DNA from: an uncultured Gemmatimonadaceae bacterium
GTDB lineage: Bacteria > Gemmatimonadota > Gemmatimonadetes > Gemmatimonadales > Gemmatimonadaceae
Length of the DNA: 64,000 bases
Direction: 5' to 3'
Assembly (NCBI GenBank): GCA_963817955.1
Contig: CAWFQK010000008.1
Coordinates: 1 to 64,000 of the forward strand
Shown: positions 37,524 to 59,100 of the stretch, piece after piece
Layout of the letters: each line of letters opens with the position of its first letter
Numbering within the stretch: the stretch's first letter is position 1
The notes under the pieces: generated by a model
What the model saw: the letters and a program-made list of their open reading frames with translations, nothing else
Databases searched by the model: none
Told to the model about the DNA's origin: nothing
Program-made: the position numbers and the translations under genes

Positions 37524-38557
37524 ACGCTGCCGTCGCCGACCTCCTGGCCGCCTGCGGCGTGTCCAACGCGCGTGACACGGTGCCGTGGCGCCGCGTGCTG
37601 CTCGTCAACAACGTGGGCGGCGTGCCGGGTGAGGATGCCAGAGGTGACGTGGTGGCAAGCCGCGGATTCAATCTCATCGTGCTCGACGAGGGTGGAGCGC
37701 CGACACTCTTCTGCAAGTGTCGTCCCGCGTCCGCTGGCTGGAATCGTGGCAGCGCACTCGTGGCGCAGATGAGCGGAATACCGGAGCTCGCAACCGTGGT
37801 GGCGCCCACCTGGAGCGTTCACTCCGATATGATCGATGCCGAGGTGAGCCGGTATCTGCGTGGCGAGCTGCTGGAGCGTCGCATTCGGTCCATGACTGCG
37901 GTGCAGCTCGGCGTTGCGCTCGACGGAATTCTCGCTGCCGCCGCGAGGCTGGCGACGCATGCGGCCCGCGTGGAACCACAACTGGCGGGGGGCCTCGCTG
38001 GCATATCGCTGAGCGATGAGGCGTCGTGGATCATGCCGGCCGTCGTCGACGCTGGACTTGCCTCCGCAGACGCCGGCCGCCTCGAGGCTGCGCTCGCATG
38101 CGCGGGCACGCTGCCGCGCTGCCTGCAGCATGGGGATCTCTGGCCGCGCAATGCGCTCGAGGCGGATGGGCATTGGCATCTGCTCGATTTCGAAATGTAC
38201 GGACGCGTCCAGGTGCCGCTCTATGATGCATTCCATCTCGTGCGCACGTCGTGGGATGCACGCGCCGGGCGAAATGGGGCTCACCGCGCATGGCTCGATG
38301 GAATGCGCAGCAACGGGGCGGACAACGACGTGTTTCGCGCGACGATAGGGCGCGCCGCGCGCAAGGCGGGACTGAGTGCCGCGCAGGTTGGCGGCGCGCT
38401 CGTGTACTACGTTGTCCACTTCGCGGCGAGTCTGTATCGGCGCGGGATTCTGGCGCGAGATGTCGAGCCATACATGTTCGAGGTGTCCCGTCTTGCGGAG
38501 TGGATAGCTGACGGTAGACGCCCGGATGAGCTGTTGCTGCCGACGCGGCAGCCCTGA
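37520..38557 (+). CDS. Aminoglycoside-phosphotransferase (APH)-like kinase
   Basis: QHGDLWPRN..LLDFE...PLYD motifs. Confidence 0.75.
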   Translation: MNAAVADLLAACGVSNARDTVPWRRVLLVNNVGGVPGEDARGDVVASRGFNLIVLDEGGAPTLFCKCRPASAGWNRGSALVAQMSGIPELATVVAPTWSVHSDMIDAEVSRYLRGELLERRIRSMTAVQLGVALDGILAAAARLATHAARVEPQLAGGLAGISLSDEASWIMPAVVDAGLASADAGRLEAALACAGTLPRCLQHGDLWPRNALEADGHWHLLDFEMYGRVQVPLYDAFHLVRTSWDARAGRNGAHRAWLDGMRSNGADNDVFRATIGRAARKAGLSAAQVGGALVYYVVHFAASLYRRGILARDVEPYMFEVSRLAEWIADGRRPDELLLPTRQP

Positions 38558-38654
38558 CTGTACAAGTGACCTTCAGATAGGTCAGGTGACACTGCGTCGC
38601 ACATCGCGTTCTCAGCCAACGATGGCCACGGTTCAGCTAATATGAAGTGTAGGA

Positions 38655-38688
38655 ACGCGAACGGCCGCCCGAGGGCGGCCGTTCGCGT
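38655..38688 (-). terminator. Perfect 16-bp hairpin downstream of the island gene
   Basis: ACGCGAACGGCCGCCC-GA-GGGCGGCCGTTCGCGT, 33 nt after the stop at 38722. Confidence 0.7.
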
Positions 38689-38721
38689 GTACAGCGGATT
38701 GGGACCTGCTGGTGCGCCGAA

Positions 38722-39481
38722 CTACGCGGCCGACACCTCACTGGCCGGCGGAGGAGTCACCGGTGGCGTGGTGACGGGTGATGTGGTGACCGGTTGCGTG
38801 GTGACTGGCGGCGTCGTCGCCGCAGTCGTAGACCCGATCTTGACGCCCGGTTTGCGCGGAATGCGCTTGGCGGTCTGCCAGGCGGCGAGCAAGGCCTGGT
38901 CGGCGCCGATGAGCGGCAGGAGTTCCGAATCGAGCAGCTTGATCATGTTGCGTCCGCGCTGCTCCTCGATCGACAGTCCTGCCGTGGCGCCCCGTCGACG
39001 GACGCCGAATGTCGCTCGACCATCGAGCGATTCCTTCATCGTCTCCGCCGCTGCCTCGAGACGTGCAATGAAATTGGTCGACAGCCCGCCGTCGATCAGC
39101 ACGGCCTCGTGCCGCCGCGACGCCTCGGCCATGGCCGCCGCCGCAGCGAGCAACCGCTCCGTCGAGACATTGGCCCGCGGCATCGTCAGCGAGCTCGAAG
39201 TCCGGGACTGCCTTGAGCCGGATCTTCGCGACTGCCGCGATGCCCTGCATGTGATGCTTGCGGAGCGCGACCCGGAGCGCCTGCTGGCGCGTCGTCTCGC
39301 CCCGACTCGCGCGGCTGCCATCCTCCTGCGTCGCCGCGTGGGCCGTGAGTTGCGCGATCGTGTCGCTGAGCTCTCGTAGCGTCGTCGAGCCGCTCAGTGT
39401 GGCGAACGGGCCGGGATTCGCCGCGATGAATGCGTCGCTGCGGCGGAGCGTCTCCAGGGTACTGCCTTCACTGTATTTCAT
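38722..39481 (-). pseudogene. Alpha-helical hypothetical protein (about 252 aa) split by a +1 frameshift near 39190
   Basis: GGAGG RBS and ATG 39481 (MKYSEGSTLETLRR..HHMQGIAAVAKIRLKAVPDF). Continues in the adjacent frame (LTMPRANVSTERLLAAA..WQTAKRIPRKPG plus a PVTT tail). Length 760 = 3n+1. Confidence 0.7.
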
Positions 39482-39590
39482 ATGGCCTCCAAGTGGCCAT
39501 GAGGGCGCCAAAAGAAAACTGCACGCCGGCGGGCGCCCGACGCGCCGGCGTGAAGAGAGAGCAACAGACGTGAGATGTGTCGCGATCGCC

Positions 39591-39694
39591 GTCGGAAGTG
39601 ACGGAAGCGCGGCGGGAATGACGGAATGGTCGTCGGAACCGACGGAAGCGCAGTCGGGAATGACGGAATGGTCGTCGGAAGAGCGGGAGCTGCC
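39591..39694 (+). repeat. Degenerate tandem repeat of about 21 nt x5 (GTCGGAA..GACGGAA..)
   Basis: Units at 39591, 39612, 39632, 39653 and 39674. Confidence 0.75.
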
Positions 39695-39896
39695 TTCAGA
39701 CCTGTCGGAGTCGCCGAGGGACAGCGCGACGTGCCGCGTGCATTGGTCGTGTCTACGTGCCGCGCCAGCCATCCCCCGTGCGTCCGCGCGACTGGGTCCT
39801 ACAGAACAATCGATTACCTGTCGACAGGGATCTGTTCCATGTCGGCGCGGACGAGTCCCGCGTGGATCGAGCGGGAGAGGCTTCGAGGGCCGAGGC

Positions 39897-40739
39897 TCCG
39901 ATGGTGATGAGCGAGGGTTTGCTGTTGACCGGGACTACTCCTCGCGGGATGCCCGCTACTCCATCCTGCACGGCCGTGAGTCCGCTGTCGGTCGCGAGCG
40001 GTTCATGCTTGCACGCGACCGATTCGTGCTTGCACGCGACGGGTTCGTGCTTGCACGCGACAGGTTCGTGCTTACGCCGGCGCCGTTCCGTCTCACCACA
40101 GACCAATCATACCTGGACGGGCGTGGATTCGCTCTCGACAGGAAGGAATCCGACCTGACCGGGACACCATTCCACGTCGACGTCAGATCATTCCAGCGAA
40201 CCGAGCGGAGATTGCGGGTGGACGCGCGCGAGATGTGTGTGTACGCGCATCAGAGGCGCCTTGGCAAGCAGAGGTTCCATGGAGCGCGAGGGGCATTGTC
40301 ACTGGCGCGGGCGGCATTATCGGTCGACACCGGTGTGTTCGATCGGAACCGGAATGCCTCCGCCCTGATCCGTCGCTGGTGCGAGCTGGATGCGCCGGAG
40401 TCACTCCTCGATCGGCGCTCGTTCGATCGTGACGGGCGGGAGTTCCACCTGCGCAGGCGTGAGTTGGAGTGAGACAGCGAGGGATTCCCTATGAGCAGGC
40501 ATGCATTCCAGGTAAAGTCGCGGGAATTCGGTCTCGACCGCGATCAATTCCCTCGGGGCAGGATTGCATTCGATCTCAACACCGATCGATCCCACCTGGA
40601 CACGCGTCCATTCGGTCTGAACGATGATCGATTCCAGCTACACACGCGTGCATTCGAGCTAGACAACGATCGATCCCATCTCGACAGGCTCGCATTCGAT
40701 CTCGACACGATCGACTCCATCAGGGCGCCTGAGCGTTCT
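39897..40739. repeat. Strictly 21-nt-periodic degenerate array, about 41 units
   Basis: (A/G)TTC/TCC recurs at 39897+21n without indels, e.g. TTC at 40002, 40023, 40044, 40065, 40086, 40128, 40170, 40191, 40485-40569, 40611-40653 and 40695. Confidence 0.85.
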
Positions 40740-40882
40740 GTGATGAACATGCCTCTATATATTAGTTCCGAAAATTGGGGGTCGGCGCAAGGGCCAATAT
40801 GACCGATTGACCAAAACCGACATGTTTTGCTGATTTCGGCGTTAGTACAAGTAGAGAGATACGTCAGTCGTGAGGCCGCGGA

Positions 40883-40906
40883 CCCGTGTCCCGTGTCCCG
40901 TGTCCC
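40883..40906. repeat. Heptamer repeat CCCGTGT x3
   Basis: Directly after the flippase stop codon. Confidence 0.8.
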
Positions 40907-40908
40907 AC

Positions 40909-42447
40909 TCACCCGGCCGCGACGACGCGCGTCCGCCGTGGCGCCAACCGCGCGGCGATGGTGCGTCGCACCGTTGACCGCTCGGCTTCCGTCAGAATGC
41001 CGAGGTGCCAGATGGCCGTGAGGTAGGCGGCAAACAGCAGCGCGCGGATTGGCACCACGACGCTGAGACTTCTGTGTGGTCCGGCGAGTCCGAGCAGTGC
41101 CACGCCCACAGCCAACGTGACGAGCCGGCGGATCGGTTTCCAGTCGTATTGCACGGGTAGCAGACGGAGCGACAGCCGCAGAATGATCGCGTACCGAACC
41201 CCGAATGCGAGCACCGTGGCGATGGCCGCGCCCAGTCCAAGCCACCGTGGGATCAACACGATGTACCCGATGCACGCCACCGCCGCCGCCACCCAGTTCG
41301 CCATCGTGATGTACTCCGTGCGTTCGCGGAGGTGAATGCCAATGTCCTGCATGACCGTCCAACTCTGGAGGATGTAGGCGATCAGGATGACGGGCACGAT
41401 ATCCGCCGCGGGGTAGAACGCCGGCTGCGTCATGATCCGGAGGACACTGTCGACGAATAGCGTGATGCCAAGTGCCGCGCTGATCAACAGCAGGTTGAGG
41501 TACACAAAGGCCCGCGACAGTACGAAATCCCGATCTGGCCGTTCGGCAAGTGAGAAGCGAATCGGTTCCCAGACGAGGTCCACGGGCATGGCGCCCACCA
41601 TGGCGAGCAAGAAGCCGAACTGGTAGGCGAGCGCATAGAGACCGACCGTCGTCATGTCTGCCGCTCGCTGTAGGAAGAACCGGTCGCCGAACGTAGCGAT
41701 GAAGGTGGCGACCTGCGTGGCAACGAGCGGCAGTCCGTAGCGTACGAGCCGCTTCGCGGCGCCACCGGAAAAATGCAATCCAACCTCACCGACCAACCGA
41801 ATCGCCAACACGATCCCGACAACGCTGGCGGCGACGGCACTACTGATGAACACCGCCAGCGCCCCGAGATGCAGATGGACGAGCAGGACCAGATTCAGTG
41901 AAATCTGCAGCGCAAGCAGCACGGTATTCGCGGCGACGAACACGGACGATCGGCCGCGTGCCCGCGCGTAAGCGAGCGGCACGATGAACAGCGATTGTCC
42001 CGCCAACCCAACGGCTGCGACGCGCAGCAGCACGGCACGCGAGGGATCATGAAACACGAGTTGTGCCAGCGGCCCCGCGAAGAGGCACACGCCGCCGGAG
42101 ACGACGGCAAAGGCGCCGCAGATCAATACCATCGACGTCGACGTCACCGCTTGGCGTTCCTGCTCGTTCTTCGCGGCGTGATAGTAGCGAAAGACACCGA
42201 TGGCCAGCTTGGCGCCGGCAAGGATGGCGATGAAGTCGAGCGTCATCTCAACGAGCTGGATGACGCCATAGTCCGCCGGTGCGAGATGACGGCTGTAGAT
42301 GGGCAGCATGATGAACGCTGCTGCCCGATTGATCAGAATGCCCGCGGCATAGATTGCCGTGTCCCGTCCGATGCGCCGCATGGCGATCGGCGGCGGCGCT
42401 GCGGTTTCTGCGGTTTCAGTCGCGAGACGCTCAACAGCTGCCGACAT
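40909..42447 (-). CDS. wzx: Oligosaccharide flippase (Wzx)
   Basis: FIMLPIYSRHL.PADYG, YGLPL and DRFFL..VGLYALAY motifs; many TM segments. Confidence 0.85.
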   Translation of the reverse strand: MSAAVERLATETAETAAPPPIAMRRIGRDTAIYAAGILINRAAAFIMLPIYSRHLAPADYGVIQLVEMTLDFIAILAGAKLAIGVFRYYHAAKNEQERQAVTSTSMVLICGAFAVVSGGVCLFAGPLAQLVFHDPSRAVLLRVAAVGLAGQSLFIVPLAYARARGRSSVFVAANTVLLALQISLNLVLLVHLHLGALAVFISSAVAASVVGIVLAIRLVGEVGLHFSGGAAKRLVRYGLPLVATQVATFIATFGDRFFLQRAADMTTVGLYALAYQFGFLLAMVGAMPVDLVWEPIRFSLAERPDRDFVLSRAFVYLNLLLISAALGITLFVDSVLRIMTQPAFYPAADIVPVILIAYILQSWTVMQDIGIHLRERTEYITMANWVAAAVACIGYIVLIPRWLGLGAAIATVLAFGVRYAIILRLSLRLLPVQYDWKPIRRLVTLAVGVALLGLAGPHRSLSVVVPIRALLFAAYLTAIWHLGILTEAERSTVRRTIAARLAPRRTRVVAAG

Positions 42448-43465
42448 ACGCCGTCTCCGGTGTCGCGCGCGGGATGAGCCGCTCGGCCGCTTCGGACACC
42501 GTGGCGAATGAGAACGATTGTATCCCAGCCAGGCGGTCGAAGTATTGTTCCATGTTGGCGCGGAACCGGTCGCGCTCGGCCGAGCCGCTCACGAACGGAC
42601 TCAACCCCGATACCAGGCTCGGGCTGTGCCACGTGATGTGGATGAAACGCGCGCCATCGAGCAGGAGCAAGCGCGTCAGCATGAGCATGTCGTTCACGGT
42701 ATCGGTTTCGAAGCTGAGCTGCACTTTGCGTAGCAGGTGCGTGCGATAGGCCAGCGATGCGAGCGACAGCGGGCCGGCGCGCGATCGGAGGAGTTGCTCG
42801 TGCCGGTGATGCCAGCTCGCGAACGGACGTCGTGTGTACCCCACCGAGAGTGGTAGCTCGACGATCGGGCCATCGGATGTCGGAATTGTGATGTCGTCGA
42901 ACGACGGGTGATATGCTTCCAGCGGAGCGTCGCGGAAATCCGGGCCATCGTTGAATCGGCGCCAGTCGAGAAACGGCGTGACGCTGCTGTCCACGGTATA
43001 CCCTTGTTCGGAGATGGCCCTCATGCCGAGCGCGCCCATGCCGTATCGGCCGGCGCGAAAGGATGTAGGCCGGGATCCGAACACCGTCGCCAGCAGAGCG
43101 GTCAATTCGCGCAGCTTTGCCGCCTGCAATTCGCCGGATAGGTTCTTCATCACCGTGTTGCGCGGCACGAACAGCTCGCGTGCCGGGGGTGTGTTCCACG
43201 GATGCAGATGTGCGCCGATTTCCGCTCTGCCGTCGGAACTGAGATCGCTGAGGATACCGGCGGCCCATTCGACGGACGCGACCTGGTAGGATGTGAAGTA
43301 GGTCGGACGCACGCCGAAGCGCTCGAGCAACCGATGCACCGTTGGCAGCTCAGCGATGTTCGTCACCCGGATGTCGTTGCGCGACGGCTCCCAGTTGTCC
43401 TCCTCGGTGTCAATGGAGACGACGACGAGCAGCGGCGGCGCGGCGGGGTGGACGGCAGCAGTCAT
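42431..43465 (-). CDS. Polysaccharide deacetylase-like protein (WalW-like)
   Basis: VSIDTEED, RPTYF, EIGAHLHPWNTPP, SFRAGRYG and DSSVTP motifs. Confidence 0.8.
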   Translation of the reverse strand: MTAAVHPAAPPLLVVVSIDTEEDNWEPSRNDIRVTNIAELPTVHRLLERFGVRPTYFTSYQVASVEWAAGILSDLSSDGRAEIGAHLHPWNTPPARELFVPRNTVMKNLSGELQAAKLRELTALLATVFGSRPTSFRAGRYGMGALGMRAISEQGYTVDSSVTPFLDWRRFNDGPDFRDAPLEAYHPSFDDITIPTSDGPIVELPLSVGYTRRPFASWHHRHEQLLRSRAGPLSLASLAYRTHLLRKVQLSFETDTVNDMLMLTRLLLLDGARFIHITWHSPSLVSGLSPFVSGSAERDRFRANMEQYFDRLAGIQSFSFATVSEAAERLIPRATPETAYVGSC

Positions 43466-44619
43466 GCGGAAGTTCCCGGATCGTCGGGGGGCTGATCGCG
43501 CCGCGACATGTGATCGAACAGCACTCCTGCCTGTTCGGCCAGTCGCAGCATTCGTCCCTTTGCCGAGCGGCGGAATGCGATCAGCTGGTGAGTCCAGCGT
43601 GTGGTGCTCGTCCACTCGGCTTTGTAGGGCTCTGCGCCGCGCAAGAAGTCGAAGCGACGCACGCCGCGAGCGATCGCGCGTTGAATCATGATGCCAACGT
43701 GCACGCCTCCGACGCTGAACTTATTCCACGCCGGGGAGCGGCCGGCCTGATAGAAGTGCAGTGTCTTGGCGTCGGTGAATCCGTACCAGGCGGATATCGG
43801 TTCTCCGTCGACATCGATGGTGCTCAGCCACGTGTCATGGGAGCGTGCGAGCGATGTCGCGAAGCGCCGGTGGAGTGCGTCGAGGCGAGCGTCGAACGTC
43901 CCTTCGCCGCCCCAGCGGGCATCGTGTAGTCGTCTCAGATGCGCCCAGCCGCGATCGAGCGTGTCGTGCTCGTAGAACGTCACGGCGAGGTGTCCTCGCT
44001 TGGCGAGCGCCTGTTCGCGCCGCGCGATCACGTCTCGGCGTGAAGCGCTTCGAGTCTGGAGGTAGTCTTTCCAGGAGCGGGGCAGGTCGATGTACGGACA
44101 CGGCCACTGGGGTCGCATCATGGTGGCGAAGCCGCGCGCCTCGAGCGCCGCCTGGAGCCGCGGCGCGCCCACGGCGTCGCACGAGATCCCATCGAGCTGG
44201 AGCATGTCCCACTCCAGGTTATCGAGTGCAGCGGCGATGGCATTGAACGGAGTCGATGTGCTTGCGAGAACGTCGAGGTGGTCGGGACATCCGAGGTCCC
44301 CCACAGCCCACGTCAACGCTGTCGCCTGAAGCCGCCGGTGTGTCACGCGCCGCGGCGCGAGTGGAAGCGCCGTCTGAAGTCGGTGATCACCGTCGACGAT
44401 CGCCAGCACCACGGCGGCATTGCGCTCGTGTGCCGGGGCACTGGCGTGCCACGCATCGTGCCAGGCCCAGGTGGAGAACGGCGACGCCAACCCCGCTCGG
44501 GCACGCAATGATTCCCACCGCGATTCGCCGAGCGCGAGCGTGTCGGCGAGGGACATCACCGACACGCGCGCGGCCCGTGTGGATCCGACGCGTGCGTGAA
44601 CCTCGCCGATCGCTGTCAC
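43462..44619 (-). CDS. GNAT-family acetyltransferase (CelD/BcsL-like)
   Basis: PFSTWAW, CPYIDLP, LHDARW and FDFLRGAEPYK.EW motifs. Confidence 0.85.
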   Translation of the reverse strand: MTAIGEVHARVGSTRAARVSVMSLADTLALGESRWESLRARAGLASPFSTWAWHDAWHASAPAHERNAAVVLAIVDGDHRLQTALPLAPRRVTHRRLQATALTWAVGDLGCPDHLDVLASTSTPFNAIAAALDNLEWDMLQLDGISCDAVGAPRLQAALEARGFATMMRPQWPCPYIDLPRSWKDYLQTRSASRRDVIARREQALAKRGHLAVTFYEHDTLDRGWAHLRRLHDARWGGEGTFDARLDALHRRFATSLARSHDTWLSTIDVDGEPISAWYGFTDAKTLHFYQAGRSPAWNKFSVGGVHVGIMIQRAIARGVRRFDFLRGAEPYKAEWTSTTRWTHQLIAFRRSAKGRMLRLAEQAGVLFDHMSRRDQPPDDPGTSA

Positions 44620-56150: not shown

Positions 56151-59100
56151 TCAAGAGGACAGCAGCCCAATGCGCATGGCGAACGCGACGAGCTCGGCTC
56201 GCGTGTCGAGCCCGAGCTTGCGCATCGCCCGCGAGCGGTAGGTCTCGACGGTTTTCGGCGACAGAAAGAGCTTCTCACCGGCTTGCGCTGCCGTGTAGCC
56301 TTGCGCGGTGAGCGCCAGCACTTTGCGCTCGCGTTCGGACAGGTCGTGCAGGGCCGTAGCGGCGGCTTGCTCCGTCGGTACCCGGAGGCCGGCGCGGAGG
56401 AACTCCTTCAGCGACGGATCGATGAGCAGTTCACCGCGCGCCACGGCACGCAGCGAGGTCACCAGCTCGTCTTCATTGACTGTCTTGCGCAAATAACCAC
56501 GTGCCCCGGCCCGGAGCGCGGCTGCCAGCGTGCCTGGCGCCTCGTCGGCTGTCAGGACCAGCACGATCGCGTCGTCCGCTTGTCCAACAATGCGCCGCGT
56601 TGCCTCCACTCCGCCCATACCCGGCATCGACAGGTCCATGATCACGACGTCGGGATGTAGTTTCGGCACGAGATCTACCGCTTCTTCGCCTGTCGCCGCC
56701 TGGCCGATGACGACCATACCGGATTGTTGATTGAGGAGCTGGACGAGTCCTGACCGTGTCAGCGGATGATCCTCGACGACGAGCACGCGAAGATCCTGCT
56801 GCACCACCGGTGGTACCACCACGGACGCCGGAGGCAGCGGCGTATCCGGCACAGCACCGCGCCAGATGGGCAGCGTGAAGCTGAATGTTGAGCCGCGGCC
56901 CAGTTCACTCTCCACCCAGATCCGTCCCCGGTGCCCTTCGACGATGCCGTGCGCAATGGCTAACCCGAGACCTGCGCCAGTCTTGCGAGAGTGCGCGGCT
57001 TGCCAGAAACGCTCGAACACGTGCGGGACGTCATCCGGCGAAATGCCGGGCCCCGTATCGCCCACCGAGAACACCACGTCGTCATCGCGCGCAACAGCCC
57101 GCAGCATGAGCTTTCCGCCGCCGGACATGAAGCGGATGGCGTTCCCAATGAGATTGGACAGCACTTGGTGGATGCGCTCCGGATCTGCGTAGACGCGCGG
57201 CAGCTCGCCATATTCCACGCGGAACTCGACGCCTTTGGCACGTGCAGATTCCTCGAACATCTCGCGCGCCGTGGTGAGCAGGTACTCGGCGCGCACCGGC
57301 TCCTGCTCCACCCGTAGGTGTCCAGACTCGAGCCGCGTGATGTCCATGAGATCGGTGATGAGACTGCCCATCGCGTCACCGGCGGCGCGAATCGCCCCGA
57401 TGGCGCGACGCCGATCGTCGGCCGACGCCGTCGCTTCATCGAGGCGGGCTGCCCAGCGCGAGATGGCTGCAAGCGGATTGCGTAGATCATGCGCGACGAA
57501 CCCCAATACCTCGTCACGCAAACGAGTGGCGGCTTTGGCGTTGTCGTACAGGCGAGCGTTGTCGATTGCCAGCGCCGACGATGTCGCCAGATCCTCCATC
57601 ATGCGCAGATCCTCAGACGCGTAGTGGCGGCCCGACTCCGTGGCGGCCACGGTGATGGCTCCGATGATTCGTCCGCGGGCCGCCAATGGAACGATCATCC
57701 ACGAGACAGTGCCGAGCGCCCGGAGCATCTCGAGATGGGTGGCATCGCGCGCCATCCGCGTCAACACGTCGCTGCGCACGGTCGCCACCAATGAGGCCTG
57801 CCCGGTGCGAATGACACGACTGACCGGGTGATCGAACGAAAATGGCGCCAACGGATAGCGCGCCCGAATCTCGTTCAGAATCCGCTCTTTTTCCGAGTTC
57901 GCGGCCACGGCTTCCACGGCGCGCACGATGCCCGTCGTGCTGTCGAGCAGATCGATGATGCACCAATCGGCAATTCGCGGCACCAGCAAGTGCGCGATCG
58001 TGCGAAGGATCTCTTCCGAGTCCAGCGACGACGCCAGGACCTGGCTCGCTTCAGCGATGAATTCCGACGCCTCGCGCGCTCGCCGGCGCGCGGTGATATC
58101 CGGGACCTGCGACACGACGTACAGCGGCCGGCCATTCTGGTCGCACACCACGGTCCGCCTCAGGAGTGCCCAAACGACGTGTCCATCCTTATGGATATAG
58201 CGTTTCTCGATCTCGCAGGCCGTGATCTCGCCGGCAAATAAACGGCGCAACTGCTCAGTATCATCGTGCTCATCGTCCGGGTGTGTCACGGCGGCGGACG
58301 TCCGCTGCAGCAGTTCTGCCTCCGAATAGCCGAGCATATCACACAATGCGCGATTCACGCGCAGCCAGCGGCCCTCGGCGGTGACGACGCCCATGCCGAA
58401 CGGCGCGTGGGTCATGGCGTTGCGGAACAGTTCTTCGCTGGCTCTGAGCGCCTCGTCTACGGCATCGCGCTCCGTGACGTCCTCGATCACGCCTACTACA
58501 TGAGCCGGCGTGCCGGAGGATGTGCGCGATTCAATGCGAGTCGTCGCCTGAAAGGTGTGCTGCACGCCATTCACCGGCAGCGATCGGAACTTGATCGGCT
58601 GCACGTTGCCACTGCGATCGTGGAGGACCGCCTGGTAGGCCTCCTTCACGCGGTCGCGATCATCTTCGTGGACGCATGCGAAGAACTCGTCCATTGAAGG
58701 CGCGGGCCGGCCGGAATCGAAGTTGAAGAGCCGATACAACCCGTGGGACCACACCACTTGCTCCGTTGGTACATCCCACGACCAGGTACCTATCTGTCCC
58801 ACGCGCTCGATTGCGTCGAGGAGGGCCGTCTGGCGCTGCTCGGCCCGCTCGGCACGCCTGAGCGCCACCGCGCAGCCCACCGCGGTGTTCAGCCGATCGC
58901 TGTCAAGTCCCTCGAGCGTGAGGCAGGCACTTGCTCCCGCGGCCATTGCCTCGGCGCACCGTCCGTCGTCCGCGTGCGGCAGGACGGCGAGGATCGGGGT
59001 TGCCGGCGCAGTGGTCGTCAGTTCGTGGATGGTATTGCTCCACATGCTGTCGGGAGAAGCCGCATCGACGAACACGATGTCTGCGTTCCCGACCGCGAGC

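Follow-up and report, generated by a model that had tools for sequence, protein, structure and literature searches.

A multicopy module in a Gemmatimonadaceae genome combines a new family of helical proteins with a phase-locked array of 21-bp units, a candidate binding lattice

Results

We analysed a stretch of 64,000 nucleotides (nt) from an uncultured Gemmatimonadaceae bacterium (GenBank assembly GCA_963817955.1, contig CAWFQK010000008.1, positions 1 to 64,000, hereafter the window), in which an original prediction, made by reading the letters, had marked a helical hypothetical gene, here named H, and a degenerate array of 21-nt units beside it as a candidate undescribed system. Comparison with the rest of the genome placed both features within a module of approximately 2.2 kb, of which positions 38651-40885 represent one copy among the roughly 20 of this Gemmatimonadaceae genome, so that the locus is not the single island it had been taken for. 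The module consists, in order, of a terminator hairpin, the minus-strand gene H, a leader hairpin, approximately 56 array units and a 116-bp AT-rich tail. Using the translation of the array and the two halves of H as tblastn queries against the host genome (4.53 Mb, 9 contigs) we identified 15 loci with both H and array, 7 with an array only and 8 with H only, while BLAST returned 22 matches to the leader and 21 to the tail, the query copy being counted. A copy on contig C2 is 96-98% identical to that of the window over 38651-40885 and sets the ends of the module.

The array

The array in the window is a hypervariable, phase-locked run of 21-bp units at approximately 39570-40757 to which no strand is assigned. 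Phased from 39897, 41 units of 21 nt follow one another in register to 40739 and 39 of them have T at the first position, the two exceptions being the units at 40233 and 40254. Phasing and autocorrelation thereby upheld the original count, lags 21 and 42 giving autocorrelations of 0.47 and 0.483 over 39897-40739 where lags 1-90 average 0.265 (sd 0.048), and no lag-21 peak was seen in two neighbouring genes used as a comparison. The span first reported was sound, but its start was set too late: lag-21 autocorrelation is 0.404 over 39500-39896, and the array begins at approximately 39570-39590, almost at the leader of H. Tandem Repeats Finder recovered both the local duplications noticed earlier, as near-identical units at 39993-40073 (period 21, 3.9 copies, 90% matches), and the 42-nt super-period, at 40567-40714. 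It also returned a second 42-nt repeat at 39590-39680, in the block nearest H, which has a differing 21/42-nt unit; this repeat puts the onset of periodicity about 90-110 nt from the H start codon. The period-21 criterion was reached by 6 of 1136 sampled 252-nt windows of the genome, which excludes chance as the source of the array.

In a per-position logo T occupies position 1 of the unit in 91-95% of cases, position 2 is T, C or G and almost never A, C-T stands at positions 7-8, GAC at positions 10-12 and A or G at position 21, with certain positions held at 91-97%. Read as plus-strand codons the unit becomes TTC-nnn-CTN-GAC-nnn-nnn-nnn, which translates as x-x-F-x-L-D-x (the FxLD frame). 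This frame contains a single internal stop in the window, the TGA at 40470-40472, where paralogues have CGA, and the three minus-strand frames over the upstream 1.45 kb contain 4, 12 and 11 stops, in agreement with the one plus-strand and several minus-strand stops described previously. Relative to its paralogues the window array differs not only by the change of CGA to TGA at 40470 but by a 1-nt phase slip near 39860-39920, and both are also found in the C2 copy. A CRISPR array was ruled out, the units abutting without spacers and all being degenerate versions of one 21-mer. We found no Rfam match at E≤1 between 38000 and 41500, no Watson-Crick covariation either inside the array units or from one unit to another, and no consistent GC skew of the arrays relative to H. 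The complementary frequencies of positions 1-3 and 19-21 had suggested a within-unit hairpin, for which covariation was likewise absent (Watson-Crick 0.37 vs 0.33 expected, positions 2-20). The distal array (40490-40740) is rich in GATC/TCGA palindromes, for example CGATCGATTCGATCTCGAC, at a density judged by eye to be far above the expectation from base composition.

The H gene and its product

H (39481..38722, minus strand; assigned from the list of open reading frames (ORFs) and the C2 comparison) encodes an elongated, all-helical protein which in its intact form on C2 is 257 amino acids in length. A single additional base near 39196, absent from the intact C2 copy, disrupts the gene in the window, the two copies being otherwise 98-100% identical. 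The original prediction had given this gene a strong ribosome-binding site and a terminator of its own, and both were found. The ribosome-binding site is a GGAGG (complement of 39486-39490) set by the start codon within a short hairpin of the form ATGGCC...GGCCAT (39482..39500, minus strand), and the terminator is a GC hairpin at 38654-38689. The 5-bp GGCC core of the short hairpin pairs in 95% of cells across 12 copies and is invariant, and because this core never varies it provides no evidence of covariation. Towards the end of the gene 15-nt repeats (38759-38814, minus strand) encode a Pro/Thr-rich tail (Pro-Val-Thr-Thr), and the tails of the window and C2 proteins differ by exactly one such unit.

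H had no match to any Pfam, NCBIfam, PHROG or PADLOC family, comparison with PDB by sequence profile gave nothing below E 0.39, and the nearest clusters in the ESM Atlas are unnamed hypothetical proteins. The AlphaFold2 model (29-row alignment, mean pLDDT 89.4) is all-helical with two helices of approximately 55 residues, and a conserved W-x-x-A-K-R segment is followed by the disordered Pro/Thr-rich tail. Foldseek with this model gave no hit at E≤0.001. In an exhaustive structural comparison the top VIA Z, 9.4, went to generic long helical bundles and is within the noise of the tool for such folds. A profile search of 1.84 billion representative proteins, by comparison, identified 5,102 H clusters at E≤0.001 and 1,033 at E≤1e-30. 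H is a new family of rod-like helical proteins without a Pfam entry. Between H paralogues dN/dS is 0.21-0.42 (six pairs) with an excess of third-position changes, as expected of ordinary purifying selection, and many copies of the module carry a decayed H.

Linkage of H and array in other genomes

Strong 21-nt periodicity extends over 400-1400 bp directly upstream of H in 20 of its 23 loci in this genome, including those of paralogues just 25-35% identical to the H of the window. More widely H is present, often in several copies, in 27 of 201 genomes of the family and in 58 of 301 genomes of the phylum (a tally that includes one unpublished genome, G252). All belong to one order and to two of its families, with 6 of 69 genomes carrying H in one and 51 of 125 in the other; the 106 genomes of ten other families have none. 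We scored a locus as positive when at least two windows of 252 nt had 21 as their best period at z≥3, the background of 6 in 1136 given above referring to a single-window criterion in the window's own genome. The flanks of homologues, which the original prediction had proposed as the place to look for 21-nt periodicity, were positive upstream of H at 16 of 22 loci in other genomes of the family and at 12 of 26 in the wider order, while the downstream flanks were positive at 0 of 22 and 0 of 25; 14 of 20 further loci from three genomes were also positive. Unit sequences differ widely among genomes and the period alone is common to them. One locus, L039 (G186:C54), has a 22-nt period over approximately 600 nt with 4-5 stops in every frame, the other H loci of the same genome having 21-nt arrays. 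Two H proteins (P0050 and P0043) carry N-terminal heptad-repeat extensions of 70-190 residues read on the H strand which are probably gene-caller run-through into the array.

Evolution of the array

Within this genome we distinguished subfamily I, comprising the FxLD-type arrays including that of the window, and subfamily II, with the unit C/S/F-R-L-D/A/G-x-L-x. Differences between paralogous arrays numbered 2592, 3304 and 2858 at codon positions 1, 2 and 3, position 2 being the highest. Array dN/dS ranged from 0.34 to 1.84 in 10 pairs (median approximately 0.9), and in one pair of modules dS was 0.53 for the array vs 0.12 for H, the array diverging faster than the silent sites of H. The anchor codon retains T at base 1 and, in approximately 74% of units, C at base 3 while base 2 alternates among T, C and G to give F, S or C and almost no Y, and one third-codon-position column is 44-64% A in a genome of 64% GC. 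The codon-usage score was +0.015 for the array against +0.35 for H and a control gene.

No in-frame start codon is shared among array copies, the first ATG, GTG or TTG being found 120-290 nt into the frame at a place that differs between copies, and no Shine-Dalgarno sequence precedes the candidates in subfamily I. The longest open array frame, of 474 codons on contig C4, had one match in a homologue search, from the same genome, and AlphaFold2 modelled its repeat part with a mean pLDDT of 28.4 from a 6-row alignment only, a poor model being no proof against a protein. A stop or frame slip is present in 8 of 10 subfamily I arrays, and in other genomes the open strand of an array may be the far one or that of H, some arrays being open on neither. 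The original prediction had offered an ordinary pseudogene as its refutation, with relatives retaining an intact heptad-repeat ORF under purifying selection; judged by dN/dS, missing starts and inconsistent strand, the relatives have no such ORF. As homologues also keep periodic arrays, the proposal of a candidate undescribed system holds, and an ordinary pseudogene is not what the array represents.

In 11 of 16 arrays the units keep one phase throughout approximately 1 kb; the other arrays belong to modules with a decayed H. Of 65 indels counted between close copies, 44 have a length divisible by 21 and a single further one a length divisible by 3. The remaining 20, whose lengths are not divisible by 3, all involve four phase-slipped arrays. 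Pairs of constant-phase arrays have accumulated 17-270 substitutions and zero small indels, and unit number varies even between copies that are 98.6% identical. The window and C2 copies are separated by few substitutions and by indels of 15 nt (the Pro/Thr repeat of H), 42 nt and 21 nt, the last two being whole units.

The tail and the link to sigma factors

The conserved AT-rich tail (40755..40872, plus strand, defined by BLAST copies and the C2 alignment) carries TATATATT. The original prediction had noted AT-rich sequence at 40750-40860, which is indeed present, but the stretch at 40755-40870 is the best-conserved part of the repeated module rather than a loose spacer: its 21 genome copies are 81-100% identical, better conserved than either H or the array. 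On C2, the most complete copy, the tail runs directly into an ORF of 237 amino acids whose ATG aligns with the window GTG at 40870-40872. This ORF has a weak match to Sigma70_r4_2 (E 1.2e-4, 22 bits, below the 25.7-bit cut-off) and is followed on the same strand by a second ORF which by eye resembles a FecR-type anti-sigma factor. On the alignment with C2 the tail is the 5′ control region of a divergent gene resembling extracytoplasmic function (ECF) sigma factors, which the window copy has lost. The window itself contains only the first few codons' worth of sigma homology (40870-40885) and no sigma gene beside the module. Since C2 homology stops near 40885, a few codons into the sigma-like gene, the window copy is a truncated duplicate that lacks the sigma gene and has a frameshifted H. 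No paralogue of the C2 sigma-like gene was found beside any other module of the genome.

Array and tail do not share one constant frame from copy to copy, and the tail is therefore not coding. It was also rejected as a structured small RNA, folds of both strands in three copies having z values between -0.17 and -2.2. Tail DNA had 0 matches in 200 other genomes of the family, and the tail pattern had 0 matches in the genome contigs and metagenome contigs of two public collections. In the same-genus genome G177, 5 of the 10 H loci studied have a matching ORF on the far side of the array, running divergently from H, and one further sigma gene of G177 was seen only in an enlarged locus. Eight enlarged loci of relatives, picked for their match to the sigma query (five from G177 and one each from G030, G046 and G111), all contain a gene with Sigma70_r4_2, in five cases with Sigma70_r2 as well, and some have TonB-related genes downstream; an open plus-strand array frame is present in 2 of these 8. 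Sigma genes are thus a recurrent, not a constant, neighbour. Because relatives and the C2 copy have sigma genes beyond the array, the ancestral layout was likely, on this sequence comparison, H followed by the array and then the sigma operon. Within the window a Sigma70_r4_2 match at 56214-56366 (36.2 bits, over the cut-off) falls in a 1073-codon minus-strand frame, unusually long for a sigma factor.

The leader hairpin

A terminator scan identified a terminator- or attenuator-like hairpin in the leader of H (39510..39552, minus strand). Its arms lie at 39522-39531 and at 39543-39552, and in the H-sense direction it runs on to TTTTCTTTT (39510-39519). In 12 copies the share of paired cells is 91.6%, compared with at most 51.7% when the partners are slid, one pair is seen as CG, GC and UG, and 13 G-U cells pair in H-sense RNA only. 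No hairpin of this type was found in three loci of other genomes, so it is not general to the module. A sigma-70 promoter scan of 38300-41100 returned none, and ECF-type promoter motifs (GGAAC...CGTC), sought by eye in the units and leader, had no convincing spacing.

Module ends and flanking genes

The left end of the module (38651..38689, minus strand) is the terminator-like hairpin after the H stop, C2 homology beginning at approximately 38651. This hairpin is near-identical in 10 of 10 copies compared, in which the H proteins are approximately 57% identical. Its loop (38670-38673 in the window) reads CTCG in some of the 10 copies and the inverted CGAG in others. The right end (40873..40906, no strand) lies where C2 homology ceases near 40885, and (CCCGTGT)n occupies 40883-40906. 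Heptamer runs (CCCGTGT/GTGTCCC) also follow the tails at G000 C4:1408314, C4:1542961 and C5:102149, and comparable 7-nt runs are found in other intergenic flanks of the genome; such runs could be a sign of junctions or could belong to an independent microsatellite found across the genome. At the ends compared we saw no transposase, terminal inverted repeats or target duplications, although no systematic search was made, and H matches no transposase family.

As had been predicted, the module of the window stands between convergent genes of polysaccharide synthesis. To the left are a GT4 glycosyltransferase, a methyltransferase and an APH-like kinase, and to the right is a Polysacc_synt flippase which has no orthologue in five same-genus genomes at E≤1e-20. 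The flippase is adjoined by a 394-amino-acid minus-strand ORF (42431-43615) with no Pfam match at E≤0.1. Genes beyond the tails of other copies lie in either orientation, and the module at G000 C4:116610 ends beside sequence resembling the 3′ part of a tRNA gene. The public sequencing runs listed as containing sampled words of this DNA comprised no RNA run and included four soil or sediment DNA runs of one study, each with less than one fifth of the words.

Discussion

We consider it fairly probable that the array is non-coding, translation in this genome being also conceivable. The interpretation that we tentatively favour, and to which we give somewhat less than an even chance, is that of a predicted non-coding binding lattice of two-helical-turn units in a divergent control region, a plausible mechanism which the original prediction had suggested for the adjacent protein. 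The array would be non-coding DNA filling the space between H and the sigma operon and would act as a lattice coated cooperatively by protein, with H the best candidate binder because the linkage of H and array has been kept across two bacterial families. As a 21-bp unit corresponds to two turns of B-DNA, the few constrained bases would lie on one face of the helix, and the phase would never break because units are gained and lost only whole. Such a coat would reach promoters at both ends of the array, setting how strongly H is expressed, and likewise the sigma operon in copies that have one, and rapid turnover of units would give each paralogue its own variant. A more specific form of this idea is that H polymerises on the hypervariable, two-turn-phased satellite as an undescribed chromosomal nucleoprotein lattice, that every paralogue fits its own variant of the array, and that the filament switches a divergent ECF-sigma operon; we regard this as doubtful.

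Several observations weigh against a non-coding lattice bound by H. No DNA-binding domain or fold was recognisable in H by family scans, Foldseek or structural comparison, a lack of matches that is no proof against DNA binding, and a sigma domain lies within 1.5 kb in only 4 of the 22 best loci of other genomes. The arrays of this genome have a strong 3-base periodicity, and stops in the FxLD frame number 6 vs the 19.8 expected from its position-specific composition in subfamily I and 2 vs 15.5 in subfamily II, counts that are not independent because the arrays are related by descent; stops in the other five frames of subfamily I are at 0.84-1.23 of expectation. Two arrays are open for 407 and 474 codons despite a decayed H, which fits selection on the frame or binding of H in trans. 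Finally a period of 21 equals seven codons, and approximately 45 arrays keep 21 while only one has 22.

In a rival reading the array would be a translated, hypervariable plus-strand heptad ORF in the FxLD frame, encoding a fast-evolving, unstructured partner of H or serving as a long upstream ORF whose translation controls the sigma gene, and the window copy would then be a decaying member, its frame damaged by the nonsense TGA and by a phase slip of 1 nt. FxLD is the best of the six frames for both stops and codon score, the depletion of stops in subfamily I is confined to it, the composition by codon position is gene-like (0.67/0.47/0.69), frames of 405-474 codons are open in some paralogues, the TGA of the window is a sense codon in its paralogues, and the frame ends within the tail, 70-100 nt before the C2 sigma start. 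However the pattern of change is not that of a coding sequence, with dN/dS near 1 and no third-position excess beside an H gene under clear purifying selection, an anchor codon kept at its outer bases and variable at the middle one, and no indels of 3 or 6 nt. Nor is there a conserved start or ribosome-binding site, a confident structural model or a homologue outside this genome, and the frame relative to the tail varies among copies, few of the sigma-linked arrays are open on the plus strand and the open frames elsewhere may be on the H strand. We therefore think translation of this kind unlikely, if well worth keeping in view. An RNA role on the opposite strand is a good deal less probable. 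Here the array would form a non-coding leader RNA of H with approximately 56 protein-binding motifs, ending at the hairpin and U-run before the gene, and read-through or antitermination, perhaps via H binding its own leader, would set H expression. The terminator-like hairpin with its run on the H strand, kept in 12 copies with G-U cells that pair only in H-sense RNA, lies 30 nt before the ribosome-binding site, a gap that leaves no room for a promoter between them, the short hairpin covers the Shine-Dalgarno sequence, and the H-sense strand has A>T in 26 of 31 arrays. Set against this are the absence of an Rfam match and of covariation among the units, the loci of other genomes in which the leader hairpin was not found, and a tail in which no H-strand promoter was recognised and which is better explained as the 5′ region of a plus-strand sigma gene.

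It is also improbable, though marginally less so than a leader RNA, that the array is a functionless minisatellite whose register is kept by whole-unit slippage or unequal exchange, within a segment spreading by duplication or by unexplained mobility. Dispersed copies in which the terminal hairpin and tail have changed less than the sequence between them, neighbouring genes in either orientation, the many decayed H genes, unit numbers that differ between nearly identical copies and arrays that outpace the silent sites of H would all be in keeping with such a history. A neutral minisatellite would however be expected to be lost, whereas H and array have stayed together in two families even as the sequence of the units was replaced. 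Certain unit positions are strongly held, 11 of 16 arrays show no small indel even though substitutions have accumulated between pairs, and the ends compared, in what was no systematic search, lacked the transposase, terminal inverted repeats or target duplications of a mobile element. The non-coding lattice in a divergent control region is the reading that we carry forward.

Known arrays with dedicated binding proteins include the iterons of plasmid Rep proteins, parC-ParR of plasmid R1 and tubC-TubR. Like the module, these consist of head-to-tail direct repeats of approximately 10-22 bp in helical register beside the gene of the protein that coats them, or in our case is proposed to, and vary in unit number. 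The module differs in having 20-60 units vs approximately 4-10, in being chromosomal and present in approximately 20 copies, in the high degeneracy of its units and in the absence of a replication initiator or partition ATPase, its neighbours being genes of polysaccharide synthesis; the candidate binder is a long helical bundle in which no ribbon-helix-helix or helix-turn-helix was detected. With coding minisatellites and heptad-repeat proteins the array shares a seven-codon period, one frame with few stops and whole-unit indels, but it lacks the purifying selection, conserved start and consistent open strand of heptad-repeat proteins, and its structural model is of low confidence. The C2 copy and several relatives resemble loci of ECF sigma and FecR anti-sigma factors, the array lying directly upstream of an ECF-type sigma gene, whereas the window copy has no sigma gene. 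We know of no described ECF group whose control region contains a phased array of 0.4-1.4 kb and a divergent gene for a helical protein. Each of these nearest known kinds (iteron or centromere, coding minisatellite, ECF control region) fails at least one tested defining feature, and a full-text literature search, in which titles and abstract openings were seen, gave no description of such a module or of such arrays.

Conclusions

The arrays call for care in annotation, as gene callers probably make spurious proteins or N-terminal extensions of H from them. Members of a large unnamed protein family of 5,102 clusters are tied, in two families of Gemmatimonadota, to a DNA feature kept in exact register even as its sequence changes more quickly than silent sites. 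Were the array translated, its products would be hypervariable heptad peptides, a family on which ordinary selection does not act. If instead the binding lattice is true, the module would constitute a new architecture of bacterial control region and H a new class of regulator for ECF sigma systems.

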